A stretch of 64,000 bases of DNA from an uncultured delta proteobacterium (GCA_963843145.1 CAWJJC010000028.1:128001-192000), one strand, 5' to 3'; counted from the stretch's first letter, positions 1,141-57,883 are shown. Numbers and translations: made by a program. Notes: generated by a model from the sequence alone, not told the origin.

Positions 1141-1346
1141 TTAATACGAAAATAGAATTGATCACCGCTTTTTAGGCGTTTTGTTTTTGCCGTCATCCCG
1201 GACTCGATCCGGGATCCAGGTGACCCAGGACCTTCACTGCCCTGGATTCCGGCGTTCGCTGGAATGACGACCTAATAAATTGAATAACCATAAATTTTCA
1301 TGCTTCGTGGGTGCCCGCCCCGGGCCTGCGGGTTTAATGTGAAAAT
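1141..1346 (+). repeat. ~200 bp composite repeat unit: half-site TTAATACGAAAAT + GTCATCCCGG..GGAATGAC hairpin + full 53-bp palindromic site (1294-1346)
   Basis: Aligns by eye over its full length with 12856-13064, and partly with 11827-12034. Confidence 0.85.
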
Positions 1347-1364
1347 TTATCCCTTTCGAATTTC

Positions 1365-1392
1365 TAACCAAAAATTCAAATATTTTTGGTTA
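1365..1392. repeat. CCAAAAA-N-TTTTTGG palindrome overlapping the cupin stop codon
   Basis: TAACCAAAAATTCAAATATTTTTGGTTA; related copies at 2043, 7404, 17196, 35482. Confidence 0.75.
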
Positions 1393-1732
1393 TGTTTTTG
1401 GGCCGGTAGCGGGCCGGTTCATCAAAAAAATCCAGAGCCTTCAGGGGAGAAAGGATTTGAATTGAGTGGGTGACGCCGGCGGGAATAAAATAGGAATCCC
1501 CCTTTTTGTACCTTTGGCTAACCCCGTCCACGGTCATCTGCATCTCACCTTCCAGCACCACTCCCCATTGGGCCTGGTGCTGATGGGGGGGGATTTCCCC
1601 CGTGGTCTCCACGGAAAAGAACACGGCCTGCCGGCCTTCCCCCTGAAAAAGTTTACCCCGGACCCCCGGGATGGGAATATCGATATCCGGCAATTGTTCG
1701 ATCATTTCCGGGTAGAGTATTTTATCAGCCAA
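1376..1732 (-). CDS. Cupin domain protein
   Basis: IPPHQHQAQWGVVLEG..GDSYFIPAGVTH cupin motifs; likely TTG start at 1732 after GGGAGGG (the ORF-track extension runs into a repeat). Confidence 0.85.
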   Translation of the reverse strand: MADKILYPEMIEQLPDIDIPIPGVRGKLFQGEGRQAVFFSVETTGEIPPHQHQAQWGVVLEGEMQMTVDGVSQRYKKGDSYFIPAGVTHSIQILSPLKALDFFDEPARYRPKNITKNI

Positions 1733-1747
1733 AACGTCCCTCCCCAT

Positions 1748-1884
1748 AAATTCGAAAAACGAAGCACGAAATCCGAAACAAGCACGAAGGTCCAAAATCC
1801 AAATGATCAAAACGAAAACGTTTTAAGTTTTGAAATTTGATCATTTGGATTTGTTTCGGATTTCGAAATTCGGATTTCGAGTTT
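1748..1884. repeat. Inverted heptamer-periodic repeat (CGAAATC/CGAAGCA ... GATTTCG)
   Basis: 7-nt periodic arms in inverted orientation; similar at 35517-35633 and 45228-45294. Confidence 0.75.
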
Positions 1885-2042
1885 GAACCAATAAAAAAAC
1901 TCTTTGATTAGTCTTCATGCTAACGATAGCACATTTCCGGATGGGGGTAAAGGATTAATTTTATTTCTTTCAATGAGTTGGGATGGTTGACGGACTTGAC
2001 AAATCGGTTGACTCATGCCAATACTGCTATCATCTTTGGACT

Positions 2043-2175
2043 AGCCAAAAAAAGTCGAATTTTTTTGGCTGTAATAAAAAACCTCTAAAAAGGATTTAAA
2101 AGAACGTTTTTTATATTAGATTCTTACATCCGTTGTTAGAGACAAATCCTCAGAACAATGGATGTAAGAATCTAA
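2043..2175 (+). repeat. ~133 bp two-hairpin leader element, copy 1
   Basis: Hairpin 2043-2070, AT-rich linker, 22-bp-arm hairpin 2116-2175; homologous to 7404-7536. Confidence 0.85.
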
Positions 2176-2185
2176 AGGGGAAGGC

Positions 2186-3127
2186 ATGAAAAAAATTCTC
2201 GTTACGGGGGGGGCCGGCTTTATCGGCAGTCACCTCTGCGAAGTTTTGCTCCAGGATGGAAATGATGTAGTCTGCCTGGATAACTATTATACCGGATCGA
2301 AGGAGAATATCCTTCCTCTGCGGGAGAATCCTCATTTTGAGCTGCTGCGGCATGATATTGTCAACCCCATCGTCCTGGAGGTGGATCAAATCTATAATCT
2401 GGCCTGCCCGGCATCGCCCATCCACTACCAGTTCAATCCGGTTAAAACCGTCAAGACGAACGTCATGGGCACTCTGAACATGCTCGGATTGGCCAAACGG
2501 GTCAAGGCCCGAATCCTGCAGGCCTCCACTTCGGAGGTCTATGGGGACCCGGCCGTGCATCCCCAGAAAGAAACCTATTGGGGCAACGTCCACTGCATCG
2601 GACCTCGGGCCTGTTACGACGAAGGAAAGCGGGTCGCCGAGACCTTAATGATGGATTATCACCGCCAGCACCGAGTGGATATCCGAATTGTACGGATTTT
2701 TAATACCTATGGCCCGAGGATGGCCCTGGACGACGGGCGGGTGGTCAGCAATCTCATCATCCAGGCCCTGCGCGGTGAACCGTTGACGGTGTATGGCGAT
2801 GGGCAGCAGACCCGCTCTTTTTGTTACATCTCCGATATGGTGCGGGGGCTGAAGGGCATGATGGAGCAGGAGTCCTTCCCCGGTCCGGTCAACCTGGGCA
2901 ACCCCCGGGAATTCACCATACTGTCCCTGGCCGAAAAAGTGAAGGCCATGACCGGTTCATCGTCTCCGATTATTTTCATGCCCCTGCCCCAGGACGATCC
3001 CATTCAGCGGAAACCGGATATTGCGTTAGCCCAGGAGCGTTTGGGCTGGTTTCCGGAAGTGAGGCTGGAAGAGGGCCTGGTTCTGACCATCGAATACCTT
3101 CGCCAGGCAGTCCAACAAAACAATTAA
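2186..3127 (+). CDS. uxs: UDP-glucuronate decarboxylase (UDP-xylose synthase) family SDR
   Basis: [30 protein letters not shown] motifs. Confidence 0.92.
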
Positions 3128-3131
3128 ACCC

Positions 3132-3809
3132 ATGACGTCTGGTCTAAATTTTTCGTCTAACCGAACGATCGCCCCGCTCCGTCTTCTGGTCTTTATTCTT
3201 TCTCTGCCCTCCGTTTTCTTCTTATTGGCCGCCTTGACTTGGGCCGAATCTCCGGCGGAGTGGCGCCGGGTGGTCAGCGTGGAGGATGGGGATTCGATTA
3301 CGCTGGATAAAGGCCGGCGGGTCCGCTACCTGGGGATTGATTCCCCGGAGCGGGGAGGGCCGGGGAAAGGCGAAACCTTGGCCGAAGAGGCCCATCGTTT
3401 CAATCGCCAACTGGTTCGGGGTCAGGACGTCCGGCTGGAATATGAGGCGGAGCTTCTGGACCGCTACCAGCGGCTGTTGGCCCACGTGTATTTGAAGAAC
3501 GGCCTTTGGGTGAACGGGGAGATGGTCAAAAAAGGCTTGGCCCATGTGCTCTACCAGGCGCCCAATACGAAGAAGTTCGAAGCACTGTTGAAGCGGCAGC
3601 GGGTAGCCATAGACGAGCGGCGGGGTATCTGGAGCAAGGCCCTGGAAGAAACCGAATCGGAATACCGTGGTCAGCGGATCACCAGGAAATTTCATCGAAG
3701 GGATTGCCTCGTCGGACAAAAGATAGCGGCTAGGAACCTGGTCCTTTTCAAGCACAAGAAAGACGCCTATCTCCAGGGCTTCAGCCCCTGCCGCCTATGC
3801 CGGCCATGA
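3132..3809 (+). CDS. Thermonuclease (SNase-like) with C-terminal Ada-type Zn-binding domain, exported
   Basis: VEDGDSI, VRYLGIDSPE, DRYQRLLAHVY; C-terminal FHRRDC..GFSPCRLCRP; hydrophobic N-terminus. Confidence 0.88.
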   Translation: MTSGLNFSSNRTIAPLRLLVFILSLPSVFFLLAALTWAESPAEWRRVVSVEDGDSITLDKGRRVRYLGIDSPERGGPGKGETLAEEAHRFNRQLVRGQDVRLEYEAELLDRYQRLLAHVYLKNGLWVNGEMVKKGLAHVLYQAPNTKKFEALLKRQRVAIDERRGIWSKALEETESEYRGQRITRKFHRRDCLVGQKIAARNLVLFKHKKDAYLQGFSPCRLCRP

Positions 3810-3827
3810 GGTTAACCGTTAACAAAT

Positions 3828-4271
3828 ATGGATGACCGTCGTTACCCCGAACGACCCTTTATCGGGGTCGGGGCCATTGTTTTTGAGGAGGATCGGGTTT
3901 TATTGATTCGTCGGGGAAAGGACCCCGAAAAGGGAAAATGGAGCATTCCCGGGGGGGCGGTTCATCTGGGGGAAACCCTGGTCCGGGCTGTCTGCCGGGA
4001 GGTGGAAGAAGAGACCGGCTTGGAGGTGGAAGCCGAACGCCTGGTCGAGGTTTTTGAACGGATTATTCCCGATGAACAGGATCGCGTCCTTTATCATTAT
4101 GTGCTGATCGATTATCTTTGCCGGGTGGTGGCAGGTCGGCTAAGGGGGGGAAGCGATGCCCTGGAAGCCGCTTTTCATCCTTTGGGGGGCATTGAGGGCC
4201 TGGCGTTAACTGAGGGAACCGGCCCGATTATTCGAAAAGCCTTTGACCTGAAAAATAGAATTTTTTCTTGA
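3828..4271 (+). CDS. NUDIX hydrolase
   Basis: Nudix box GGAVHLGETLVRAVCREVEEETGL. Confidence 0.92.
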   Translation: MDDRRYPERPFIGVGAIVFEEDRVLLIRRGKDPEKGKWSIPGGAVHLGETLVRAVCREVEEETGLEVEAERLVEVFERIIPDEQDRVLYHYVLIDYLCRVVAGRLRGGSDALEAAFHPLGGIEGLALTEGTGPIIRKAFDLKNRIFS

Positions 4272-4296
4272 CAAAAGTGGGTTGGAGAAGTATTAA
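4268..4296 (+). promoter_or_regulatory. Possible sigma70 promoter of the qrc operon
   Basis: TTGACA-N17-TATTAA; -10 box imperfect. Confidence 0.4.
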
Positions 4297-4463
4297 CGGA
4301 TGAGTTTTATTCTCTAATAATTCCCAACAAATTGAACTACCCAATAAAAGATGCCTGTGTTTGAAACCATGGGGGTTATCCATATATCGGCCCGACCTGG
4401 ACTATAAATTGGTATAGCCCGGTTCGGGTTTTTTTATAAAATAATAAAATTAGGACAGGGATT

Positions 4464-5045
4464 ATGGAAAAAGAGATGGAAACAGAGGGAAAATCCAAGG
4501 GCACCTGGATGTTTTTCTGGGTCGGGGTCGTGGCATCCTTGATTTTAGGCTGGCTGATCTTCCCGGGACTTATCCAGAGCAAGAAAGTCCAACCCGTGAA
4601 ATTCAGCCATCTCAAGCACGGGGAAGCCGGGGCCGGGGCGCAGTGCGAAGATTGCCATTCATTCCGGAAGGATGGCACCTTTGCCGGTATTCCGCCCCTG
4701 GCCAAATGTCTGGAATGCCACGAGTCGGCTCAGGGCAGCTCCAAGGAAGAGGCCGATTTTATTAAATTGGCGGAGCAACTCAAGAAAGAAAATAGAAACA
4801 TTTCCTGGTTGATCTACTCTCAACAACCCAACAACGTTTTTTTCTCCCATGTGGCCCATGTCAAAATGGCCAAACAAAACTGCACGGATTGCCACAAGCT
4901 GGTGGGCGGAAAAACCGATAAAAATCCGGTATATAATTACAAGTGGATTTCAGGCTACGCTCCTGAAGTGATGATGATGGAAACCTGTGAAGCCTGTCAC
5001 CAGAAGAAGGGTAAAAGCAACGCCTGTTTTGTCTGTCACAAATAG
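4464..5045 (+). CDS. qrcA: Menaquinone reductase multiheme cytochrome c subunit
   Basis: N-terminal TM helix, five CxxCH motifs, ends NACFVCHK; first gene of a four-gene operon. Confidence 0.85.
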   Translation: MEKEMETEGKSKGTWMFFWVGVVASLILGWLIFPGLIQSKKVQPVKFSHLKHGEAGAGAQCEDCHSFRKDGTFAGIPPLAKCLECHESAQGSSKEEADFIKLAEQLKKENRNISWLIYSQQPNNVFFSHVAHVKMAKQNCTDCHKLVGGKTDKNPVYNYKWISGYAPEVMMMETCEACHQKKGKSNACFVCHK

Positions 5046-5090
5046 AACTTGACCAGACCTTAACGCTGGTAAAACACGAGGAATAGGAAA

Positions 5091-7406
5091 ATGCCAACCA
5101 TTGATCGCAGAGATTTCCTGAAGTTTATCGTCGGGGGCGCGGTGGGGACCATGGTTTCACCCCTGCCCTGGGTGCCCATGGATGAAGTGGCCAAATGGAG
5201 CCAGCGTTGGGCCCCCATTCCCGAGAGCGGCGAATCCTCCTATCTGAATTCTATCTGCCTCCTTTGTCCGGGGGCCTGCGGCATCAAAGTCCGGCTGATC
5301 GAAAGTAAGCGGGCGGTAAAAATCGAAGGCCAGCCAAACCATCCGGTAAATCAGGGCGGGCTATGTCCATTGGGCTTGGCCGGGTTGCAGTACCTGTACC
5401 AGGAAGAGATCCGCGTGAAGGGTCCGATGAAGCGTTTCGGTCCCCGGGGGAAGGGGGATTGGCTGCCGGTCTCCTGGGAAGAGGCCTATGGTGATTTGAC
5501 CAAATGGTTAAAGGAATTGCGTCAGAATAACCAGACCCACACGGCGGCCCTTCTGGATGGTCGCGGCGGACAAGGAAGCCTTTCCCTGTTGATGGCCCGA
5601 TTCATGAGAAGCTACGGTTCCCCTAATTATATTCGAACCCCGCGATTGGGAGATACGGAAGAAATGGTGACGGCCTCCCTTCATGGGGTCCGCTCCTCCT
5701 TGGCCTATGACCTGCCCCAGGCCAAATATATCCTCAGCTTCGGCGCGGGATTGTTGGACGGTTGGGGAACTCCGACCTGGGTGAGCCAGGCTTACCGGGA
5801 ATGGAGAAAAGATCCCCCGGCGGGAAGGGCCAAATTAGTCCAGGTGGAACCCTTAGCCTCCACGACGGCCTCCCTGGCGGATGAATGGGTGGCGGTAAAA
5901 CCAGGGACCGAGGGATCTTTGGCCTGGGGCTTGGCCCAAATCATGATTTCCAAAGGCTGGATTAACCGGGAGGCTATCCAGGCGGGGACTTCAGGTTTGG
6001 AAGGCTTGAAAGAAGTGCTGGATAAAAAATATACTCCGGACAAAGTGGCCAAGATTACCGGCTTGCCTCCCGAGGATATTGAAAAACTGGCCAAGGAATT
6101 CGCCTCGGCCAAACAAGGGGTCGCCCTGATGGGGAGAGGGAAAGGGGACCTGGCCATTCCTTTTTCTGAGGGTGCGGCCATCCTTACCTTGAACGTTCTG
6201 ATCGGGGCGCTGAATCGCAGCGGCGGGGTCTTTTTAAAGTCAGAAGGGGGACTAACCGCCTCCTGGCCCAAGGCGCCGCTGGATGGCAGTGCTGAGAAGG
6301 GGTTGGCCCAACCGCGGCTGGACAGCATCGGGAGTTCGAAGTTTCCCGCGGGCCAACCTAATTATATCCAATTTTTCAGCAATGCGGCCCAACAGACACC
6401 TTATCCGATCAACCTCCTGATGCTTCACGAGGCCAACCCGGCCTTTCGGTTGGGGGAGGAGGCGATCAAGGCCGCCGTGGCCCGCATCCCCTTCATCGTC
6501 AGCTTTTCATCCTTTTATGATGAAACCACCCAATTGGCGGACCTGATCCTGCCGGCGCCGACCTTCCTGGAGCGTTGGGATGACGCCTATGGGGTCCCGG
6601 GGGTGCCCTATCCGGTTTATGGCCTGGCCAAGCCCGTACTGCCCCCCCTTCATGGAAACCGAAATCCGGGCGAGGTGCTGATCGCTTTGGCCAAAAGCCT
6701 GGGCGGATCGGTTCAGGAGGCCTTAAGCTTCGAAAATATGGAAGCCGTAATTAAGCAGAGCGCCAAAACCGTTTTCGAGACCAAAAAGGGCCGGCTGAGC
6801 GATAGCCCGCCGTCGGAAGCCGGCAAGTCCGGCGCCGCCTCTTTTGAATCCTTTGATAAATTCTGGGAAGGGCTGGTCCGGGAAGGGGCCTGGTATCATC
6901 TGGAAGGCGCCGGGGTCGGGGGACAGGGGAAGATTGACGTCTATCCTGCCGCCCTCCGCCAGGAACCGGAAAAAATTGATTTAAGCTTTACCTACTATCC
7001 TGGAGAGGAGAGCCCGCTTTTGATGGTGCCACTGTCCTTGATGTTGCTCCAAACCGGATACTTCCCCAATCCGCCTTTCCTGACCAAGTACCTGGGCGAA
7101 GAAATCTTAAAGGCCAATGACCTGATGGCCCAGATTCATCCGGCTACCGCTAAAAAGTTCGGCCTGAAACAAGGGGAACGGGTGACACTGAAATCGGAGG
7201 GAGGGAGCATTAAGGTGGGGGTCCAATTGTTTGAAGGGGCCATGCCTCAGGTCATTTTCGTTCCCCTGGGAATGGGGCACGAGGCCTTTGATCCGACTTT
7301 GAAAAATCGCGGGGCCAATCCCTATCCGCTGCTGGATAATATTATTGACCCGGTGAGCGGGTTACCGATCTCCTGGGTCACCAAGGTAAAAATTCAAAAA
7401 ATTTAG
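5091..7406 (+). CDS. qrcB: Menaquinone reductase molybdopterin-binding-like subunit
   Basis: Tat signal DRRDFLK, CLLCPGACG..C motif, molybdopterin oxidoreductase fold, operon context. Confidence 0.85.
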   Translation: MPTIDRRDFLKFIVGGAVGTMVSPLPWVPMDEVAKWSQRWAPIPESGESSYLNSICLLCPGACGIKVRLIESKRAVKIEGQPNHPVNQGGLCPLGLAGLQYLYQEEIRVKGPMKRFGPRGKGDWLPVSWEEAYGDLTKWLKELRQNNQTHTAALLDGRGGQGSLSLLMARFMRSYGSPNYIRTPRLGDTEEMVTASLHGVRSSLAYDLPQAKYILSFGAGLLDGWGTPTWVSQAYREWRKDPPAGRAKLVQVEPLASTTASLADEWVAVKPGTEGSLAWGLAQIMISKGWINREAIQAGTSGLEGLKEVLDKKYTPDKVAKITGLPPEDIEKLAKEFASAKQGVALMGRGKGDLAIPFSEGAAILTLNVLIGALNRSGGVFLKSEGGLTASWPKAPLDGSAEKGLAQPRLDSIGSSKFPAGQPNYIQFFSNAAQQTPYPINLLMLHEANPAFRLGEEAIKAAVARIPFIVSFSSFYDETTQLADLILPAPTFLERWDDAYGVPGVPYPVYGLAKPVLPPLHGNRNPGEVLIALAKSLGGSVQEALSFENMEAVIKQSAKTVFETKKGRLSDSPPSEAGKSGAASFESFDKFWEGLVREGAWYHLEGAGVGGQGKIDVYPAALRQEPEKIDLSFTYYPGEESPLLMVPLSLMLLQTGYFPNPPFLTKYLGEEILKANDLMAQIHPATAKKFGLKQGERVTLKSEGGSIKVGVQLFEGAMPQVIFVPLGMGHEAFDPTLKNRGANPYPLLDNIIDPVSGLPISWVTKVKIQKI

Positions 7407-7536
7407 CCAAAAATATTTGAAATATTTTTGGCTATAATAAAAACCTCTTAACAGATCTTAAAATAACGTCTTTTAATTTAGATTTTTACATCCATTGTTC
7501 TGAGAATTTGTCTTTAACAATGGATGTAAAAATCTA
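7404..7536 (+). repeat. ~133 bp two-hairpin leader element, copy 2 (between qrcB and qrcC)
   Basis: 15-bp-arm palindrome 7404-7434; perfect 21-bp-arm hairpin 7479-7536. Confidence 0.85.
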
Positions 7537-7546
7537 GAGGGTAGCC

Positions 7547-8326
7547 ATGAAAGAAATTCCTCTCGGCAAAGAACTCTATGGCATGGTGATCGATTTAGAC
7601 CGGTGCACCGGATGTGGGGCCTGTGGCGTGGCCTGTTTCGCTGAAAATAACATCGCCTATCGAACGGATGAAACCGACAAGCTGCGAACGGGCACCTGGA
7701 TGCGGCTGTACCGCTTGAACAACGGAAAGCCCTTTCCCAAGACCCGGGTAGCCTATTTCCCCCGTCCCTGCATGCACTGCCAGAACCATACGCCCTGCGT
7801 TTCAGTCTGCCCGGTCAACGCCACTAAGATTGATGAACAAGGAGTGGTCAGCCAGATCTATCCCCGCTGCATCGGTTGCCGGTACTGTGTGGCCGCCTGC
7901 CCCTACCATGCCCGGTTGTTTCACTGGTGGGACCCGGTGTTCCCTCAGGGTATGGAAAATTACCTGAACCCGGACGTTTCCGTGGCCATGCGCGGAGTGG
8001 TCCATAAATGCACTTTCTGTCATCACCGCTATCAGCGGGCGAAAGACCGGGCCTTTATGGAAGAGCGCCGGGACCTGAAAGAGGGGGAATATAATACGGC
8101 CTGTGCCGAGGCCTGTCCCACCCAGGCTATAACCTTCGGGAATCTGCAAAATCCCGAAAGTGCGGTGGCCAGGCTGAGCAAAAGTCCCCGGGCCTTTCGC
8201 CTGTTGGAAAAACTGGGAACCCAACCCAAAGTGTATTATCTGACCTCGCAGGAGTGGATTCAGCGGCAAATTGACAACTATTTGGAGGGAGAGACCATCA
8301 AAAGGGTCTCGTCCGGGCATAACTAA
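7547..8326 (+). CDS. qrcC: Menaquinone reductase 4Fe-4S subunit
   Basis: CTGCGACGVAC, CMHC..CVSVCP, CIGCRYCVAACP, CTFC..CAEACP (NrfC-like). Confidence 0.9.
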   Translation: MKEIPLGKELYGMVIDLDRCTGCGACGVACFAENNIAYRTDETDKLRTGTWMRLYRLNNGKPFPKTRVAYFPRPCMHCQNHTPCVSVCPVNATKIDEQGVVSQIYPRCIGCRYCVAACPYHARLFHWWDPVFPQGMENYLNPDVSVAMRGVVHKCTFCHHRYQRAKDRAFMEERRDLKEGEYNTACAEACPTQAITFGNLQNPESAVARLSKSPRAFRLLEKLGTQPKVYYLTSQEWIQRQIDNYLEGETIKRVSSGHN

Positions 8327-8373
8327 CCGATTCGATTGCATCTTAAGGATATTCTATTAAAAGGGGTAACATA

Positions 8374-9612
8374 ATGGAGAAGACCTTGCCTGTTGATCAT
8401 GCCTTATTCCCGGAGGGGGTGGAACGGGGTTCCCTGCCAAAATTTCTGACCTGGATCTTTTTTCTTCTCCTGGTCGTGGGCTGGGGATTGGTTGGAGGCC
8501 TTCTGGTTTTGATTTTCGGGTTGAACCAGACCAATATGAACGACTATTTCGGGTTCGCCCTCTGGATCACCTTTGACCTGGCGATAATTGCTTTAGGGGC
8601 CGGGGCCTTCTTTACCGGGTTTTTGACCTATATCATCGGTAAAAAGGAACTCAAGGCCATTATCAATTTCGCCGTGATCATCGGGTTTATCTGTTATAGC
8701 GGGGCCATCCTGATACTCACCCTGGACGTGGGCCAGCCCTTACGGTCCTGGTACGGTTTCTGGCACCCCAACGTCCATTCCATGTTGACCGAAGTGATGT
8801 TCTGCATCACCCTGTATCTGGGGGTCCTGGCCATCGAATACTTGCCCTTGATCCTGGAAAACCGGGGTATCAATAAAAACCCCGGGGCCCATTATTTCGC
8901 CCATAACCTCCACCACCTGATGTTTATTTTTGCCGGGACCGGCACCTTTCTTTCGTTTTTCCACCAGGGTTCCCTGGGCGGTATGTACGGGGTCATGTTT
9001 GCCCGGCCTTTTGCCTTCCGGGAAGGGATTTTTATCTGGCCCTGGACTTTCTTCCTCTTCATCTCCTCGGCCATCGCCTCCGGCCCGGCCTTCACGGTGC
9101 TGATCACGGCCATTGTCCAAAAGGTCACCGGCCGGAAACTGGTCAAGCTGGAGGTGCTTTCTCTGATGGGCAAGATCGCCGGCAGCCTGCTGGCGGTCTA
9201 CTTGATCCTCAAGATTTTGGATACCCTCGGCTGGGCCTTTTCCATTCTGCCCAATCGGGGGATCACCTTCGGAAGCCAGTTCCATGGCCCCTACGGAATC
9301 TGGCTGATGGTGATGGAAATCGGGGTCCTGGGCATCCTTCCGGCCTGGATCCTCCTGTCCAAACGACGAAACAGTTACGGCTGGCTGGTCTTTGCCTGCC
9401 TCCTGGACTGCGCCGGGATTGTCTTTAACCGGTTTATTATGACCATCGTCACCTTGGCCATCCCGGTTATGCCTTTCGACCGGTTCGTCACCTACTGGCC
9501 CAGTTGGCAGGAGTGGGCGCCCACCTTTGCTATCCTGGCCTACGGAGGCCTGCTGATCTCCCTGTCGTACCGCTATTTGCCGATCTTTCCTCAGGAAAAA
9601 GAATTGAACTGA
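8374..9612 (+). CDS. qrcD: Menaquinone reductase integral membrane subunit (NrfD family)
   Basis: About 10 hydrophobic segments; LDVGQPLR, HQGSLGG. Confidence 0.9.
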   Translation: MEKTLPVDHALFPEGVERGSLPKFLTWIFFLLLVVGWGLVGGLLVLIFGLNQTNMNDYFGFALWITFDLAIIALGAGAFFTGFLTYIIGKKELKAIINFAVIIGFICYSGAILILTLDVGQPLRSWYGFWHPNVHSMLTEVMFCITLYLGVLAIEYLPLILENRGINKNPGAHYFAHNLHHLMFIFAGTGTFLSFFHQGSLGGMYGVMFARPFAFREGIFIWPWTFFLFISSAIASGPAFTVLITAIVQKVTGRKLVKLEVLSLMGKIAGSLLAVYLILKILDTLGWAFSILPNRGITFGSQFHGPYGIWLMVMEIGVLGILPAWILLSKRRNSYGWLVFACLLDCAGIVFNRFIMTIVTLAIPVMPFDRFVTYWPSWQEWAPTFAILAYGGLLISLSYRYLPIFPQEKELN

Positions 9613-9636
9613 TCCTTATTAATAACCTTCAGGAGA

Positions 9637-9665
9637 AACGGGGGGATGGTTGCCATCCCCCCGTT
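9637..9665 (+). terminator. Hairpin after qrcD, probable terminator
   Basis: AACGGGGGGATGG-TTG-CCATCCCCCCGTT perfect stem; weak U tract. Confidence 0.65.
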
Positions 9666-9711
9666 ACTATTTGGAGGGGTTGATCGTCGAATATCGAATG
9701 ACGAAGTGGTC

Positions 9712-9843
9712 TTTCGTAGGGGCGGCGACCCCGCCGCCCACCCCGGGGCCGGATTTGACCACCACCGCCGTAGCCTTGCCGGGGATGTGGAGTGCACCGT
9801 ATTCCTCACCCAGCCGGCAGGCGGGGTCGCCTGCCCTACGAAA
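9712..9843. repeat. GTAG-type REP doublet (REPIN-like)
   Basis: TTTCGTAGGGGCGGCGACCCCGCC ... GGCGGGGTCGCCTGCCCTACGAAA inverted arms; half copy near 11575-11600. Confidence 0.7.
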
Positions 9844-9859
9844 AACGAAGACTTGGAAC

Positions 9860-9896
9860 ATTTTCGTGCTTCGCGTGACAGGGGAGTTAAATAAAT
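9860..9896 (+). repeat. Degenerate copy of the ATTTTCATGCTTCG palindromic site
   Basis: ATTTTCGTGCTTCGCGTGACAGGGGAGTTAAATAAAT. Confidence 0.55.
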
Positions 9897-9932
9897 GGGG
9901 CTAACTGGGAAAAGTGAATTTGTCGATGAAAG

Positions 9933-10217
9933 CTATCTTCGTATAATATATGTCCGTTCGGGATAATATGGGTTACTTTCAATTACGGATTTTTCTCTCT
10001 GCAAAGACCGAATAACCCCTTGATGTGCCCTGGTATTAGGCGTATTGCGTAAAGATCTGGCATTTTCTTCTGCCAAACGGTAATGGGCTATCTCCGCTTC
10101 TTCCTGCGCCCGCTGAAGTTCGTTTGAAGTCCTGTTTGATTTTTCAATATTTACGGCGCCTTGGAAGTTGTTCTGGACGGGGACGTTTGAAAAAGAAACG
10201 TTGCCATTTTTATCCAC
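9933..10217 (-). pseudogene. N-truncated DUF4124-like protein, paralog of 12286-12822
   Basis: DKNGNVSFSN and ELQRAQEEAEI..ARSLRNTP shared with the 12286 ORF; no signal peptide. Confidence 0.6.
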
Positions 10218-10301
10218 AGATTTATAGTTAGTAAATTTATCAAAAAAAGAAGTGATTATTCTCTTGACAGCCGGGCGGGAAAGCTTGAAAATATACCCTC
10301 A

Positions 10302-10736
10302 ATGAAGCGGGTTATATTCTTTTTGGCGGTCGGACTGAGCTTGGTTTTTCCTTTCGGAGGGCCGGTGGGGCAGGGTTATTCTTCGTCCGGTCCTTCGATT
10401 TCCATTTCGCCGGATGATTATGATGCCGGGGATTTGTCCAGAGCCCCTTCCACAGTCTACAAGGTGTTCCAGGTATTTAATACGGGAGATTCTCCGCTTT
10501 CCATTACCAAAATCAAATACACCTGAAGCATGAAGGTGGTGCGGTTCGATCCGCAGATCCAGCCCGGCGGGCAGGGAGAAATCGTCATAGGATTGGAAAC
10601 GGAGAAACTGGACGGCAAGTTCGATCGATATTTCAAAGTCCTCAGCAACGACCCCCGACGTCCTGAAATCCTCATCAAAGTGTATGGCTTCTCCTCCCCC
10701 TTCCGGTCTTCCCTGGCCCCGCCTTGTAATCTTTGA
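10302..10736 (+). CDS. DUF1573-like exported Ig-fold protein with in-frame UGA at 10524-10526 (candidate selenoprotein)
   Basis: Two ORF-track pieces lie in the same frame: YDAGDL..FQVFNTGDSPLSITKIKYT*SMKVVRFDPQIQPGGQGEI..VLSNDP. Confidence 0.7.
10540..10555 (+). promoter_or_regulatory. Candidate bacterial SECIS hairpin
   Basis: TGCGG-TTCGAT-CCGCA starting 13 nt after the UGA. Confidence 0.5.
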
Positions 10737-11346
10737 TTGTGACGGGGTATTATTCGATTCTCGGGAAGCCAACCGGGCGTTTTATAATCTCCTCTTGACC
10801 CGTTTCGGGAACCCCCCCTTATCGGAAGAAGCCTTAGATTACGTGCATATGCACACGGTGTTTGAAGCCGTCGATTTCCTTTTCCCGGCAGAAGGGGAAC
10901 GTTTGGCCGCCCATGCCTATCGACAGGATCTCGACCCGGAACCCTTCATTCGGCTCATGGTAGAAGAACCGGGGGTTAAGGAGTTCCTGACCTTTTTAAG
11001 GCCGGCGGTCAAGACCGCCATTTCCACTAACCGCACCACCACCATCAGGCAGGTCCTTTCCTTCCATGGGCTGAGCGAATGTTTCGACCTGGTGATCAGC
11101 GCCCTGGATGTATCCTGTCCTAAACCCCACCCGGAATCGCTGATTAAAATCCTTGACACCTTTCAAGTCCGGTCCGACGAGGCCGTCTATATTGGAGATT
11201 CGGTGGTCGATGCCGAGGCCGCGCAAAGGGCCGGAATTCCCTTGGTTGCCTATAAGAATCCTTGCCTGAAAGCGGACCTGCATGTGGCATCGTTCCGGGT
11301 TTTGAAGGAATGGATGGAAGAGCGGGGAGGCTGTTCCCGCGGTTAG
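10684..11346 (+). CDS. HAD family hydrolase (phosphoglycolate phosphatase-like)
   Basis: FDCDGVLFDS, KPHPE, YIGDSVVD motifs. Confidence 0.9.
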   Translation: MASPPPSGLPWPRLVIFDCDGVLFDSREANRAFYNLLLTRFGNPPLSEEALDYVHMHTVFEAVDFLFPAEGERLAAHAYRQDLDPEPFIRLMVEEPGVKEFLTFLRPAVKTAISTNRTTTIRQVLSFHGLSECFDLVISALDVSCPKPHPESLIKILDTFQVRSDEAVYIGDSVVDAEAAQRAGIPLVAYKNPCLKADLHVASFRVLKEWMEERGGCSRG

Positions 11347-13064
11347 TATGTAAATAAGCCTCTATGACCTGCAAAAAGGCAATAATCAATAGATAATTGA
11401 CGATAGATAATTGACAATTGATTATTGATTATTGATATCCTGCGGTTAGGGAGTTGTCTCGCCCCTTTATTTTCATGCTTCGTGGGTGCCCCGCCGCCCA
11501 AACCAAGGCCGGAGAGGATCCCCGGCACCTTAGCCTAACCTTAGGATGTGAAGGGAACCATATCCCTCTCCCCGCCGGCCGGCGACCCCGCCGGCCCTAC
11601 TTTTAACTACGGTTATCCCCCACACCCCCACCCTCTCCCTCGTGGGGGAGAGGGAGCCAGAGGAAACAGCCCAAGCCTTTGAACTTCCCCTCCCCTGGCG
11701 GGAGGGGACTTCGGCGTGAGCCCTTCGGCAGTGAGCTCAGGGTCGAACTGCTCAGTCGAACGATAGAGGGGTGGGGGAACTACGATTTTTATGCTTCGTG
11801 GGTGCCCCGCCGCGGGGCATGGCGGTTTAGTACGAAAATAGAATCGAACACCGCTTTTTATGACTTTCCCCTAGGTAGTCATACCGGACTTGATCCGGTA
11901 TCCAGTACCTCCGGTGCTTATCCAAGGCTGGATTCCGGATCGCGCTTCGCTTGTCCGGAATGACAAATCTTGGTCAATCCTTATTTTCAAGCTTCGGGGT
12001 GCCCGCCCCAGGCATGGGGGTTTAGTATGTAAATGCAAAGTGCAAAATTAAAGATGTCTGATGTAGCACAGACGCCCTCGTCTGTGTCCCTATTCGTTTG
12101 AGGACCCACCAACAGGAAATAGGGAGCAACAAAAGCAAAGATAAAAATCCTCTCGAGTTAGGGAGGATTTTTTATTTGTGCGCCCGGCAGGGTCATACGG
12201 ATCCCAGTGCTGGCATCCTTCTTGTATTTTCTAATCCCCAGGGTTATTCAAAAATCTTAAGGATGAGTGAAGACGAGGAGGAAAAATGAAACCGGGAATG
12301 GCTTGTTGCTGTCTTTTAGGTGTCTTATCTTGCTGGACACAGGGTTATCCGGAAACGATTCACCGATATACCGATAAAAACGGGGTGCTCTGTTTTTCCA
12401 ATTCCCTGACAGAGGGGAATTTTCCAAACCGGGGCCTATCAGAAAATCAAAAACCTGCTTCGGCTGAGCTGCAACGGGCGCGTGAACAAGCCGAAATCGA
12501 GTACTGGCGGGCGGTCGAGGCCAAGGCCCGCTCTTTGAGGAATACCCCTGACACCGAAGTTCACAGGAAAGGAAGACCTTCTTCACAGCTAGAGGACTTT
12601 AGTTTGCGGAAGGGCCCGTCCGGGAAAAAAACTCACAGACGGAAGACGGGGAAAATGCGTGGCTCCGTTTCTAATGACCGAAAACCTGTTCCTGATTCGG
12701 CTGAATCAAAGAAAGTTCGATCGAGGAAAACAAAGTTGCAGGCCTGGAAGAACGCACCGGAATGGGAATTTCAGAGTATGAATAGAAGCTATTTCCCGAG
12801 GAGGAACGCGGCTCTAAAGTAACCCGCTTCGGGGCACCCTCTGTGGCATGAGGGTTTAATACGTAAATAAAGTTGGACACCGCTTTTGAGGTTTTGGTTT
12901 TTGCTGTCATCCCGGACTCGATCCAGGATCCAGGCAACCCAAGACCTTCACTGCCCTGGATTCCGGCGTTCGCCGGAATGACGACCTAACCAAATGAATA
13001 AAAATTGATCTTCATGCTTCGCAGGTACCCGCTCCGGGCATAACGGGCGCAGGTTACGGTAAAT
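11341..13064 (+). repeat. Tandem array of palindromic sites separating variable cargo
   Basis: Sites or half-sites at 11341-11355, 11469-11496, 11785-11839, 11983-12034, 12826-12868, 13008-13064, all in the same orientation. Confidence 0.8.
12286..12822 (+). CDS. DUF4124-like exported protein with basic low-complexity tail
   Basis: Signal-like N-terminus followed by IHRYTDKNGVLCFSN; GAGGAGG RBS. Confidence 0.7.
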   Translation: MKPGMACCCLLGVLSCWTQGYPETIHRYTDKNGVLCFSNSLTEGNFPNRGLSENQKPASAELQRAREQAEIEYWRAVEAKARSLRNTPDTEVHRKGRPSSQLEDFSLRKGPSGKKTHRRKTGKMRGSVSNDRKPVPDSAESKKVRSRKTKLQAWKNAPEWEFQSMNRSYFPRRNAALK

Positions 13065-19809: not shown

Positions 19810-20073
19810 GGCCGTGCATCCTCTCTCGAACCAACAGCCAGGGTGTCCCCTGCCTGAAACAAAAGACTAGAGGCAGTTACGACACAAACCGCATTATTTA
19901 CCGCTGCTTCCTCCCGGACCTGACGGGGTTCATAATCGTTTGTTGCGTAACGTCCAATCCCAATTTCAAGAGAGGTAATCACCATGGATATTTCAAGTCC
20001 TCAAGAGGATATTCAGCCCCGCGTAAGCGGATTTCGGGTACAGGGCACCGCTAACTCCCCGCCTAGCACGACC
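19810..20073 (-). ncRNA. ffs: Signal recognition particle RNA, large (Alu-domain-containing) type
   Basis: Helix 8 GAACCCCGTCAGGTCCGGGAGGAAGCAGC; 5' Alu-like GCGGGGAGTTAGCGGTGCCCTGTACCCGAAATCCGCT; ends GGTCGTGC/GCACGGCC pair. Confidence 0.9.
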
Positions 20074-45227: not shown

Positions 45228-45294
45228 AAATTCGAAATCCGAAGCACGAAATTCGAAACAAACGGCAAAATTCAAAACTCAAATAACCGAAACA
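45228..45294 (+). repeat. Heptamer repeat, single arm
   Basis: AAATTCGAAATCCGAAGCACGAAATTCGAAAC. Confidence 0.65.
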
Positions 45295-46080: not shown

Positions 46081-46210
46081 ACGAAAACAAGAATATTGAA
46101 TATCGAACGCCGAATATCGAATTTCGAAGTTTTCTTCTTGTTCCTTCGTCCTTCGAAATTCTCATGCTTCGGGAGTGCCCGCAGAGGGCCTGAGGGCAAA
46201 AGAGAAAACC
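46081..46210 (+). repeat. Heptamer array plus degenerate ATTTTCATGCTTCG site (46158-46210)
   Basis: GAATATTGAATATCGAACGCCGAATATCGAATTTCGAAG, then ATTCTCATGCTTCGGGAGTGCCCGCAGAGGGCCTGAGGG. Confidence 0.7.
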
Positions 46211-46211
46211 A

Positions 46212-50382: not shown

Positions 50383-50580
50383 GGGCGCCGCGGCGCCTCC
50401 ATATACGGGAGGCGCCGCGGCATCCTCGAAGCATGAAACAGGAACGTTTTTAATCGGGTCATTGCGAGGAGTGAAGCGACGAAGCAATCCCCCTAAGGGT
50501 TTGGGACTTCCCGCAGGCACATCAGGGGGATTGCTTCGCATCGCTCGCAATGACTATGGGAGTGGGGTTATTTTCGAACC
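50383..50580 (-). repeat. GC hairpin + site half (CGAAGCATGAAA) + GTCATTGCGAG..CTCGCAATGAC REP (50458-50554)
   Basis: Inverted arms seen directly; similar unit at 56806-56919. Confidence 0.75.
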
Positions 50581-50595
50581 AAACTGGAGCCGGCG

Positions 50596-55273: not shown

Positions 55274-56797
55274 ATGCTCTACGGAGACTGGATTGGTCGT
55301 TGGGGAGACAGCGTTCCGGAGATTGAAGCCCTGGTGGATATCCCCCGGAATCAACGCCTGACCTACGGGGAACTCAACCATGACGTCAATCGTCTGGCCC
55401 ATTTTCTGTCGGTCCGGCTGGGAATAGGCAAAGGCGATCGGGTAGCCGTGCTGGCCTACAACCGGGCGGATTATATCACCCTTTTCTTTGCCGCCGGCCG
55501 ACTGGGGGCCATTCTGGTGCCCCTTAATTTTCGTCTGGCCATCGATGAATTTTTTTATTTTTTTAAGGACGCCGCCCCCCGGGCCTTCTTCTTTGATCGG
55601 GAACACCTGGAGGTGGTACGGGAACTGCAGCCCAGGCTGAACGTGGACCATTATGTCTGCCTGGATCCGGATGACCGACTGGGCCCCAGCCTGGCTTCCT
55701 GCTGGGACCAATTGCCCGCCGACCCGCTTCCGGAAGTGGAGCTGAAGGCGAATGATCCCCAATTGATCATCTATACCTCGGGCACCACCGGTCTGCCCAA
55801 GGGGGTGATCCTGACCTACGGCATGATCACCTGGAATTCCATCAACAGCCATTTGGGCTGGGGACTGCGCCGGGGCGAGCGGACCATCCTGCACTCCGCC
55901 CTTTTCTATACCGCCGGTTGGAACGTCTTTACCCTGCCCTTGTTCCATGGACTGGGGACCAACATCCTCATCCAGCGCTTCGAGGCCGACTTGATATTGG
56001 ACCTTATCGAACGGGAACGGGTCACCATTTTTTTCGCGGTCCCGACCATGTACCAAATGCTGATGGAATCTCCCCGGTTTGCGGGCGCCGATCTATCCAG
56101 TATCTGGTTCCTGGTCTCCGGCGGTGCGCCGCTGACCGAAAAAATATTTCAGACTTTTAAAAAAGAAAAGGGCCTTCATCTCCGAGAAGGATATGGCCTG
56201 ACCGAGGCGGGTCCCAACCTGTTCATGGCCGACGGAAAATTGAAGACCGTGGGCCGTCCCATGCCTCACGTGGACCTGAAGCAGATCGATGACCAGGGGA
56301 ACGAAGTACCCGCCGGCACCGACGGGGAATTGATCGTCCACGGCGATATGGTCTGTGCCGGCTATTGGAACAAGCCTGAGGCCACGGCTGAGGCCCTGAA
56401 GGACGGCTGGTTCCATACCGGAGACCTGACCCAAAAGGACGCCGAGGGTCATTATCGCATCGTGGGCCGTAAAAAAGATATGTTCATCTCCGGAGGCGTC
56501 AACATCTATCCCGCCGAAATCGAGCGGCTGATCGAAACCCATCCCAGGGTGACCGCCGTGGCGGTCATCGGCGTTCCGGATGAGAAGTGGGGGGAGGTCG
56601 GCAAGGCCTGTTTGGTGCCGCATCCCGGCGAGAGCCTGGGCCTGGAGGAACTACAGGATTTTCTGCGCAATAAAATGGCGAAATATAAAATTCCCAAGTA
56701 CCTGATCCTCCTTAAGTCGTTGCCGCGAACGGTGGCTTCGGAGAAGGTTCAAAAGTTTATTCTTAAGCAAAAACACGGTAAGGCGGATAACCATTGA
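55274..56797 (+). CDS. Acyl-CoA synthetase (AMP-forming)
   Basis: YTSGTTGLPKG, GYGLTE, FHTGD. Confidence 0.93.
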   Translation: MLYGDWIGRWGDSVPEIEALVDIPRNQRLTYGELNHDVNRLAHFLSVRLGIGKGDRVAVLAYNRADYITLFFAAGRLGAILVPLNFRLAIDEFFYFFKDAAPRAFFFDREHLEVVRELQPRLNVDHYVCLDPDDRLGPSLASCWDQLPADPLPEVELKANDPQLIIYTSGTTGLPKGVILTYGMITWNSINSHLGWGLRRGERTILHSALFYTAGWNVFTLPLFHGLGTNILIQRFEADLILDLIERERVTIFFAVPTMYQMLMESPRFAGADLSSIWFLVSGGAPLTEKIFQTFKKEKGLHLREGYGLTEAGPNLFMADGKLKTVGRPMPHVDLKQIDDQGNEVPAGTDGELIVHGDMVCAGYWNKPEATAEALKDGWFHTGDLTQKDAEGHYRIVGRKKDMFISGGVNIYPAEIERLIETHPRVTAVAVIGVPDEKWGEVGKACLVPHPGESLGLEELQDFLRNKMAKYKIPKYLILLKSLPRTVASEKVQKFILKQKHGKADNH

Positions 56798-56805
56798 TTG
56801 GTCGG

Positions 56806-56919
56806 GGGCACCCGCGAAGCATGAAAATACAGACCCCCGGTCATTGCGAGGAGCGAAGTGACGAAGCAATCTCCCAGGCAGTTTTCAACCCTTGCCAGAC
56901 CCAAGCGGGGGATTGCTTC
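56806..56919 (-). repeat. Site half (GGGCACCCGCGAAGCATGAAAAT) + truncated GTCATTGCGAG REP
   Basis: Right arm stops at GATTGCTTC where the transposase sequence begins. Confidence 0.75.
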
Positions 56920-57883
56920 AGTCGGGCGATTGAACACCTGAAGAAACGATTTGTTGAAGAAGGGCTGGAAGCGGCTCTGGAGCGTAAGCCCCGGGAAAAG
57001 CCTTCACGGGAATACATTTGACGGTGCCTTTGAAGCCCTATTAATCGCCTTGGCCTGTTCAGAAGCCCCGGAAGGTCGCCGACGCTGGACAATTAGACTT
57101 CTGGCCGACAAGGCCGTCGAACTCGGATGGCCCCCGTCGGTGTCGCATATGACGATACAGCGGGTTTTAAAAAAAACGAACTTAAGCCTCACCGCAGCCG
57201 ATACTGGAAAATACCTCCCGAAGGGAATGCGGCCTTTGTAGCCCAGACGGAAGATGTCTTGGATATTTATCATTTGCCCTATGATCCGGACTACCCGGTA
57301 GTATGCATGGACGAATCCAACAAGCAAATGATCGGTAAGTCGGCCAGCCTATCCCCCGCGCCCCGGGACAAGGCGCGCACTCACGATGAATATGTCCGCC
57401 ACGGGGTGGCCGAGATATTTATGGAAGTGGAACGTCTTGCTGGCAAAAGACATGTCGCCGTCATGGAATGTCGTACCCGTAAAGATTGGGCCAGGCAAAT
57501 CAAGCAAATGCTGGATAAACGCAACCCGAAGCGATGAAGGTACGTTTGGTTATGGATAATCTGAATACCCACAATATCGCCTCACTCTTCGAGACCTTTG
57601 AACCCAAGGAAGCCAGACGTTTGGTGGAACGACTGGATATTCATTACACCCCGAAACACGGAAGCTGGTTAAACATGGCGGAAATCGAACTCAGCGTCCT
57701 GAATGGACAATGCCTCGATCCCCGGATTCCGGACATGGCCACCATGCAAACTGAAGTAGCTGCTTGGGAAAGTGAACGAAACAACCGGGCAAAAAAAAAT
57801 TTAATGTGGCAATTCATTACCAAAGACCGCTCGGATTAGATTGAAAAGGCTTTATCCGAAACCTATAATTGTATAAATGATAT
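56920..57883 (+). mobile_element. IS630-family element remnant, 5'-truncated, with frameshifts
   Basis: APEGRRRWTIRLLA, LKKNELKP slippery A8 at 57169-57176, VVCMDE, VMDNLNTH, YTPKHGSWLNMAEIE. Confidence 0.9.

Follow-up and report, generated by a model that had tools for sequence, protein, structure and literature searches.

The DNA examined here, a window of 64,000 nucleotides (G000:C28:128001-192000), belongs to an uncultured deltaproteobacterium whose genome, G000, comprises 5.35 Mb in 32 contigs, has a GC content of 54%, and is 98% complete. Scattered along the window are short palindromic sites, isolated halves of such sites, and the hairpin-rich repeats that adjoin them (Table 1). The original prediction described a family of palindromes that bracket interchangeable cargo and listed four full sites; those at 1294, 11785, and 11983 are strong (67-73 bits with a covariance model), whereas the one at 13008-13064 has a decayed right arm. 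Lone right halves lie at 1141 and 11341 as proposed, but the third, "12826", proved to be a degenerate full site over the end of ORF 12286-12822. All five lone left halves, at 9860, 11469, and 46158 and on the minus strand at 50419 and 56806, were located, except that the one at 46158 also carries the inner stem. Every cargo type that had been named is present.

Table 1 Sites, arms, and cargos mapped in the 64-kb window (CM, covariance model)
Feature	Position	Strand	Evidence or comparison
Lone right arm TTAATACGAAAAT, 5' end of unit 1	1141..1153	+	Lone arm matched at 1142-1153
Cargo family 2, GTCATCCCGG...CCGGAATGAC long hairpin, 140 bp	1154..1293	+	Family alignment
Full 52-bp site: left arm, GC stem-loop, G run, right arm	1294..1346	+	CM, 73 bits
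Cargo family 4, GTAGGGGCGGCGACCCC... hairpins, approximate start	9693..9859	+	Absent in G002 and G003
Left arm without inner stem	9860..9873	+	1 mismatch
Lone right arm over stop codon of ORF 10684-11346	11341..11355	+	Arm matched at 11344-11355
Cargo family 0, AT-rich heptamer palindrome	11356..11468	+	Repeat family
Truncated site: left arm and 5' half of inner stem	11469..11496	+	Profile, CM
Cargo: family-4-like and CCCTCTCCC hairpins	11497..11784	+	
Full site	11785..11839	+	CM, 67 bits
Cargo family 1, GTCATACCGG...CCGGAATGAC	11840..11982	+	Repeat family
Full site, TATGTAAAT right-arm subtype	11983..12034	+	CM, 69 bits
Degenerate full site, overlaps end of ORF 12286-12822	12816..12868	+	CM, 23 bits; present in G002
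Cargo family 2	12869..13007	+	Absent in G002
Site with decayed right arm	13008..13064	+	CM; common to G002
Heptamer (cgaa) palindrome cargo	46085..46157	+	~65 bp absent in G002
Left arm and inner stem, without right arm, just 5' of gene start	46158..46196	+	Orthologous in G002
Unit: right-arm-like AGTTTGGTTCGAAAAT, GTCATTGCGAG cargo (family 3), left arm at 50427-50440	50427..50585	-	
Family-3 cargo remnant, left arm 56815-56828, half inner stem	56788..56920	-	CM

A 569-bp block at 9676-10244, found in neither of the congeners G002 and G003, holds the family-4 cargo and its left arm together with ~370 bp that contain a small minus-strand ORF (9933-10217). The plus-strand ORF 12286-12822 encodes 178 aa with a lipoprotein-like N terminus, lies between the co-oriented sites 12034 and 12816, and is conserved, with a DNA identity of 91% in G002 and 76% in G003.

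With up to two mismatches, the 14-base left arm ATTTTCATGCTTCG has 10 matches in the window against 0.71 expected (the largest count in a shuffle was 3), and the right arm, with up to three mismatches, has 9 against 1.10. One match, at 45240 on the minus strand and inside a heptamer array, is probably due to chance. Genome-wide, the left arm gave 196 matches, compared with 20 for the reversed-sequence control. A profile of the 52-base palindrome (E<0.01) retrieved 125 copies from the 5.35-Mb genome, 85 of them full, 32 consisting of left arm and stem without right arm, and 8 right-sided. The covariance model that had been suggested as a check was built from 38 genome copies and recovered eight window sites at E≤1, namely four strong ones at 1292-1347 (73 bits), 11981-12035 (69), 11783-11840 (67), and 46156-46211 (37) and four weak ones at 12816-12869 (23 bits), 56788-56830 on the minus strand (18), 11467-11513 (15), and 13006-13047 (14); it gave no match in ten loci taken from other families. 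The major right-arm subtype, TACGAAAAT, has 72 exact copies in the genome, and the subtype TARTATGTAAAT has 17, against none in the control.

Each 52-bp site runs from the left arm through a GC stem-loop and a G run to the right arm, with the consensus ATTTTCATGCTTCG-GGGTGCCCG-CCC-CGGGCAT-GGGGG-TTTAAT-ACGAAAAT. As predicted, the sites have an inner stem, TGCCC(G)/(C)GGGCA, whose loop varies, and the proposed partners pair in 79.0% of the 582 cells of the 38-copy alignment, compared with only 36-48% for slid partners. When the left arm is reverse-complemented, it agrees with the right arm at ~10 of 14 positions, a common GAAAAT end included. Covariation, which the original prediction anticipated, was detected but is modest: both sides have changed in 5 of 16 pairs, and the covariation score of 0.099, against 0.075 for shuffled alignments, was equalled in 5 of 500 shuffles. 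RNAalifold predicted no structure on the raw MAFFT alignment, and single-strand folds of the sites were only 1.7-2.5 sd better than those of shuffles. The palindrome is therefore real, yet it is mostly conserved sequence and not covarying structure.

The unit to which these sites belong consists of a right arm, a palindromic cargo of 20-220 bp, a left arm, a GC hairpin, and a G run. The earlier description of a unit as right half, cargo, and left half is correct once the inner hairpin is added, and this hairpin and the G run form the unit's 3' end. Its 5' part, (T)TTARTAYGWAAAT-AG..., comprises a right arm of ~14 nt and a semi-conserved leader of ~25 nt; in its 3' part, the long and imperfect cargo palindrome is followed by ATTTTCATGCTTCG, the GC stem-loop, and the 3' end CATGGGGG. 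Lone right arms have an information content of 0 upstream and then an abrupt rise at T-TARTAYGWAAAT-AG (T-TARTAYG), which gives the unit a sharp 5' edge, and contigs of other copies part from the window sequence exactly at 1140/1141. In the family-2 alignment, the unit measures 200-240 bp, starts with (T)TTAATACGAAAAT-AGAATTGATCACCGC, and ends with ...CATGGGGG-TTTA(A/G)T. Eight near-complete copies of this family (231 bp), which are 87-98% identical (mean, 93%), occupy unlinked loci and have unique flanks on both sides.

At least ten cargo families were distinguished. The genome contains 68 intervals of 20-220 bp between a right arm and a left arm, a repeat family lies directly 5' of the left arm at 92 of 124 sites, and repeat-linked flanks occur upstream of 102 and downstream of 42 of the 125 profile copies. 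The families found 5' of the left arm are the AT-rich heptamer palindrome (26 sites), two CCGGAATGAC hairpin families (19 and 13), the GTCATTGCGAG hairpin (13), the GTAGGGGCGGCGACCCC hairpin (10), and smaller ones. Cargo families also exist without arms: a left arm follows 30/46, 32/37, 13/23, 16/63, and 12/17 complete bodies of families 0 to 4, respectively, the GTCATTGCGAG family accounting for the figure of just 16/63. Some units lack a right arm (family 4 at C2:25181; also C21:156203), and decayed and partial copies are numerous in G000. A search of this genome for gene-carrying units, with right and left arms 300-6000 bp apart, returned 28 heterogeneous intervals with no recurring gene, and no gene-carrying autonomous version of the unit was found in it.

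The sites are dispersed over about a hundred intergenic loci as 93 single sites, 13 doubles, and 2 triples. Neighbors less than 400 bp apart, typically spaced by 93-190 bp, are co-oriented in 22 of 22 pairs (17 of 17 at a stricter threshold). Full sites had been interpreted as junctions of tandemly inserted units, which holds for the 25 of 84 that are followed by another cargo, but the remaining 59 precede unique DNA. Of the outer eight right-arm bases, 6.6 agree with the consensus before cargo (n = 23) and 5.0 before unique DNA (n = 72), a contrast that may be partly biased, the sites having been picked with the full-length profile. A poorer match is expected if these bases come from the target, and it suggests that right arms before unique DNA may be partly target-derived.

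We compared G000 with collinear contigs of G002 (245 kb, genes mostly 90-97% identical) and G003 (140 kb, 80-93%). One clean whole-unit difference is a family-2 unit at G000 C28:~614755-614988 that is missing in G002 and in G001. The empty site reads CCATATAG-TTTTGATAATCACC-TAGAGGAGG in both genomes (the target continues TAGAGG), and the filled site reads CCATATAG-TTTAATACG...GGGCATGGGGG-TTTAGTACTCAAA-TAGAGGAGG, with GGGGG preceding TTTAGTACTCAAA. The insertion point falls between ...ATATAG and TTT.G.TA.TCA in a target that is already right-arm-like; the unit lies between the G run and the common TTT, and the "right arm" of its terminal site is orthologous to target DNA. No target duplication is unambiguous there, the sole common flank being an ambiguous TTT(A). 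At C28:105271-105829, the right arm and the left arm with its hairpin are co-located in both species and the cargos between them differ, as the predicted interchangeability of cargos has it, and G000 has extra units that start right after GGGGGTT. The fixed boundary GG^TTTA that had been proposed agrees with these GGGGGTT starts, with the empty site in two congeners, and with the zero information upstream of lone right arms. Two further blocks, C2:25025-25294 and C28:478752-478974, are specific to G000.

Cargo palindromes also turn over alone between fixed arms. At window positions 12869-12998, G002 reads right arm-ATGG-left arm, with the cargo missing; at 46085-46153, it lacks the heptamer palindrome beside an orthologous left arm; and the right arm over the stop codon at 11341 is orthologous in G002 and is followed by a different cargo. 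Such cargo-only indels could equally stem from palindrome deletion or gene conversion.

Orthologous differences by whole units, foreseen in the original prediction, are thus exemplified by one clean case at G-run^TTTA, but most variable intergenic regions are messy or outright replaced. These include the region with which this analysis began, 1138-1375, in place of which G002 has an unrelated 79-bp hairpin, and the block 50427-50585 (minus strand) is wholly replaced in G002 by a plain hairpin. Orthologue comparisons at L036 (in G001), L038, L043, and L023 gave replacement or partial deletion; at L047 just one flank was found, L052 had no match, and the matches listed for L017 were other repeat copies, with one G003 match in flanking DNA. 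In about 40 gaps between G000:C28 and G002:C6, intergenic DNA, terminator hairpins included, is often wholly different, and many G002-only insertions are GTCATTGCGAG hairpins alone. No sequencing run contained more than 0.16 of the words of this DNA. Joints such as 1220 to 11928 and 11843 to 11979, seen in short, low-depth contigs of sequencing-run assemblies, are most readily explained by cross-mapping among copies of the repeats or other organisms. The proposed mobility and fixed junction are deduced from sequence comparison, namely from one clean orthologous difference, several partial ones, and the copy structure within the genome.

To establish the distribution of the arms, we searched 20 other genomes of the same family (four genera, including that of G000) and 20 genomes from 20 other families of the phylum. 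Left arms (≤1 mismatch) number 20-324 in 18 of the 20 other family genomes, the remaining two being G005 (0) and G006 (4), and 0-5 in the genomes of other families. Both arms are abundant in 18-19 of the 20 same-family genomes and at background level in the 20 other families, and right-arm and left-arm counts are correlated over 21 genomes (Spearman 0.87). Right arms are two to four times as numerous as left arms in G008 (174 vs 40), G015 (170 vs 78), and G017 (255 vs 72), an excess that suggests a diverged left arm or another 3' end in part of the family. The hosts are sulfate-reducer-type uncultured bacteria of one family.

At the gathering threshold, Rfam matched the window only at an SRP RNA of the bacterial large type (19812-20071, minus strand, 152.9 bits), and the region 900-1600 gave no match at E≤1; as the original prediction required, no described Rfam family explains the copies. 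A distant blastn search of a plasmid collection with the unit 1138-1346 gave no match. By exact-word search, which does not extend to PDF supplements such as those of PMC2700814, the arm ATTTTCATGCTTCG and its complement occur in no paper. Literature occurrences of GTCATTGCGAG strings, also found as exact words, were rejected as unrelated primers. Within the scope of these searches, the modular repeat system is real, lineage-wide, and previously undescribed.

Within G000, 117 of 125 sites lie outside crude ORF calls. Their direction is neutral with respect to genes, the upstream gene being co-directional at 60 sites and opposite at 56 and the downstream gene at 67 and 49, and strand bias is absent in one replichore, where C27 80-484 kb has four left arms (≤1 mismatch) on each strand. 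About one-third of the sites adjoin a gene start or end on their right-arm side, 43 of them within 60 bp. Since abutment on start and stop codons is so frequent, the units may reshape promoters, ribosome-binding sites, and terminators. Copies made of left arm and stem lie directly downstream of tRNA genes at G000:C28:444152 and C5:204525 (both on the minus strand), where the tRNA 3' ends appear as ...TGGCGGAG on the opposite strand.

No mobilizing enzyme linked to the sites was found in G000. The integron integrase model TIGR02249 gave 21 partial matches in this 98% complete genome, the best scoring 86 bits against a cut-off of 265, and no TnpB was found in G000. Y1 (HUH) genes gave 11 matches, at 1.9-65 kb from the nearest site, so that the Y1 gene flanked by sites that had been envisaged is not found at any of the 11 loci, and no cargo-family match lies within 700 bp of the ten non-canonical ones. 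Y1 genes occur in all 21 family genomes irrespective of site count: G005 has 12 and no left arm, and G011, the richest genome, has 4 and 324 left arms. Paralogs of ~330 aa (11 loci in G000; all 21 family genomes) combine a Y1 (HUH) domain with a DnaA-C-like helix-turn-helix. Homology among these Y1/helix-turn-helix paralogs stops at the ORF, with no sites or cargo alongside, and one 332-aa Y1 paralog scores 78.3 bits with the REP-associated tyrosine transposase model, the cut-off of which is 80 bits. The canonical IS200 copy at C28:307772 was considered as a source and rejected, its end hairpins being unrelated.

XerD scores 378 bits, over its cut-off, and a XerC-like gene 317 bits, below the cut-off of 335. 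A dif candidate, ATGTCTGATAA-GATATA-TTATGTAAACT (= ATGTCTGATAAGATATATTATGTAAACT), lies at G000:C27:81648-81675 and is the genome's only match at ≤4 mismatches. Because this single candidate is located at the contig's cumulative GC-skew maximum (80 kb), the region of C27:81648 is probably the replication terminus. The candidate's XerD arm and the right-arm subtype TARTATGTAAAT have TATGTAAA in common, and in the best register, counted by hand, the match is 8/11 in the XerD arm, 4/6 in the center, and 1/11 in the XerC arm. As the XerC-arm position lacks a match, we treat the link to Xer as hypothetical.

Integron attC sites carry the core motifs RYYYAAC (R'') and GTTRRRY (R'); elements of the IS200/IS605 type have a subterminal hairpin near each end and insert, through a Y1 TnpA that works in trans, on the 3' side of a fixed target of 4-5 nt; and dif and pdif sites are laid out as an 11-bp XerC arm, a 6-8-bp center, and an 11-bp XerD arm. 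In line with the original prediction, the attC consensus is not matched: the site consensus ATTTTCATGCTTCG ... GGTTTARTAYGWAAAT fits neither core motif. The sites nevertheless resemble attC sites in being imperfect palindromes in which a bubble separates the outer stem from an inner stem with a variable loop; in an exchange point that we infer to lie where the 3' outer arm has its inner edge; and in having co-oriented arrays, interchangeable cargos, and look-alike secondary sites as targets. With exchange at that edge, an inserted unit would therefore start with the arm and end with the remainder of the site. Integron cassettes are also reported in integrase-less clusters (CALINs) and as insertions at secondary genomic sites (10.1101/030866, 10.1101/2022.09.11.507474). 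Unlike integrons, the units have neither IntI nor attC cores, carry a non-coding palindrome of 20-220 bp where integron cassettes carry promoterless ORFs, and are dispersed with 1-3 sites per array where integrons keep one co-oriented array. The attC or HUH logic first invoked stands as an analogy; no IntI was over the cut-off, and no Y1 gene is flanked by sites.

Likeness to REP, REPIN, and BIME sequences with their RAYT transposases lies in the high-copy intergenic GC-hairpin repeats, which are lineage-confined and vertically inherited, in the mosaic with other motifs, and in the RAYT-like genes of the genome. In REPINs and BIMEs, however, REPs are inverted or alternating, according to the reports on them (PMC2817692, PMC3116915, PMC3337134, PMC3733652), whereas neighboring sites here are always direct (22/22 pairs <400 bp), lack a GTAG or CGTC tag, and flank no Y1 gene. 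Palindrome-associated elements derived from IS200/IS605 have been described (PMC6006769). The units share with such elements the asymmetry of their ends, a hairpin placed subterminally ~10 nt from the 3' end, the lack of inverted termini and of a clear duplication, and a short AT-rich target (the junction here is of the TTTA type), but they have no 5' hairpin of their own and no linked TnpA or TnpB, lack strand bias within the one replichore counted (n = 8), and are constrained in the right flank as well. Like the dif modules with pdif (XerC/XerD) sites of Acinetobacter plasmids, which, with Xer-exploiting integrative elements, are the subject of three papers (PMC6449649, PMC13141974, PMC7399989), the sites are short and bracket discrete, shuffled modules with no dedicated recombinase nearby, and one right-arm subtype matches the host XerD arm at 8/11 bases beside the inferred crossover; they differ in lacking a XerC arm at 6-bp spacing, in being co-oriented, and in their non-coding cargo and chromosomal intergenic location. 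By these comparisons, the units are not integrons, REPINs or BIMEs, inverted-repeat MITEs, or dif sites.

On balance, we lean toward the view that the sites are the common ends of lineage-specific, small, gene-less, modular, and non-autonomous units that are moved in trans. A unit would enter a right-arm-like target at one set position, with the G run on one side and TTTA on the other, after which a perfect right arm would stand at its 5' end and its 3' end would adjoin right-arm-like bases that belong to the target and are often degenerate. When the right arm entered is that of a resident unit, the full 52-bp palindrome would be rebuilt and co-oriented arrays would result. The unit geometry points to a strand-exchange enzyme supplied in trans, a tyrosine recombinase or HUH nuclease that would recognize the site when folded or as duplex. 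A circle or single strand with one site may exchange at G-run^TTTA with a right-arm-like sequence, in the topology of attC recombination, an idea put forward because the asymmetric ends, head-to-tail arrays, sharp 5' edge, apparently target-derived right arms, and lack of a clear duplication fit it. That only one whole-unit insertion is clean and that most variable regions are messy count against this explanation, as do the lack of a linked enzyme and of an autonomous version, the units without a right arm, the cargos without arms, and the weak covariation.

The enzyme might be a tyrosine recombinase, perhaps the host's XerC/XerD, acting on a single-strand substrate like attC or the attP of CTX phage so that small circles integrate, which we consider unlikely. 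The proposed fold, in which left and right arm form an outer stem separated by a bubble from an inner stem with a variable loop, would mirror attC, as would a crossover at the 3' outer arm's inner edge, and the targets are right-arm-like. XerD and XerC-like genes are present, the dif candidate's XerD arm has TATGTAAA in common with TARTATGTAAAT, and in the dif register the predicted crossover falls inside the six bases of the would-be central region, with right half and center matching at 12/17 positions (hand count); this resemblance was spotted after the fact, amounts to 1/11 at the XerC-arm position (hand count), and is weaker for the major subtype TACGAAAAT. Moreover, attC core motifs and IntI are both absent, and Xer genes are expected in every genome, site-free G005 included. 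Another doubtful candidate is single-strand transposition by an HUH (Y1) enzyme, like that of IS200/IS605 PATEs or of REP-RAYT, in which a RAYT-like Y1 protein would bind the 3' subterminal GC hairpin, cut ~8-10 nt past its foot, and insert units 3' of a TTTA-type target. The Y1 genes, 11 matches with one paralog just under the RAYT cut-off, have neither flanking sites nor cargo repeats, and their number is independent of the number of sites (G005, 12/0; G011, 4/324). Asymmetric ends, a subterminal GC hairpin with a variable loop and some compensatory stem changes, and the lack of a clear target duplication would suit such an enzyme, but the unit's 5' end has no hairpin of its own, a 4-5-nt left-side target would not predict right-arm-like right flanks, there is no strand bias within one replichore (4 vs 4), and the end hairpins of the canonical IS200 copy are unrelated.

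That the units are not mobile, and instead form a REP/BIME-like palindrome mosaic reshuffled by homologous recombination, by gene conversion between 40-50-bp common ends, and by replication slippage at hairpins, strikes us as quite improbable. Cargo-only indels between fixed arms, the cargo swap between conserved arms at C28:105271-105829, the many decayed and partial copies, and intergenic DNA that is often unalignable between genes 93-97% identical are all in keeping with such a mosaic, and related deltaproteobacterial genomes are reported to be rich in multicopy intergenic sequences (PMC2700814). It does not, however, sit well with near-identical whole units at unlinked loci that have unique flanks and a sharp common 5' edge, with strictly co-oriented arrays, or with a clean insertion where no earlier left arm or hairpin stood, for which more than conversion between existing copies is needed. 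Mobilization as a classical MITE by a DDE transposase, in which the arms would serve as terminal inverted repeats, is very hard to credit. The right arm does approximate the reverse complement of the left arm (about 10/14 positions), but the left arm is not terminal, being followed by the GC hairpin and the G run; the unit really ends in ...CATGGGGG, which bears no relation to its 5' end; no target duplication is unambiguous; and tandem copies are strictly head-to-tail.

Units with common ends that are moved in trans, as we lean toward, would package short non-coding palindromes between two fixed ends and move them as cassettes, which would place the system between REP-type repeats, MITEs, and integron cassettes. 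It looks like a miniature mobile element of a new kind, with about a hundred or more units per genome. The concrete junction (G run^TTTA) and the defined 52-base substrate offer a handle for finding the enzyme, for which candidates are a domesticated HUH protein and an Xer-type recombinase with a moonlighting role. The units account for unalignable intergenic DNA between species of the family whose genes are 93-97% identical. A bolder idea, to which we give little credence, is that the 52-bp palindrome is a new folded single-strand recombination site, analogous to attC and to the attP of CTX phage, with which a host tyrosine recombinase integrates and excises tiny non-coding circles genome-wide at pseudo-sites that resemble the right arm. 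Each circle would hold one site and one hairpin cargo, and the recombinase would perhaps be XerD/XerC, suggested because the right arm beside the crossover is dif-like; if true, this would be a cassette system for non-coding DNA without a dedicated integrase.

Genes for the 23S rRNA intervening-sequence protein (PF05635) gave 17 matches in G000, 12 of them over the cut-off and some clustered (e.g., C3:16220, C19:73763-83570, and C4:3512-6831). They were considered as full-length cargo and set aside, none of the 13 loci examined being convincingly armed on both sides. Two adjacent tyrosine-recombinase genes (302 and 384 aa) occur in three copies, at C10:93191-94775, C13:73140-74724, and C28:349917-351501, and this block looks like a multi-recombinase mobile element.
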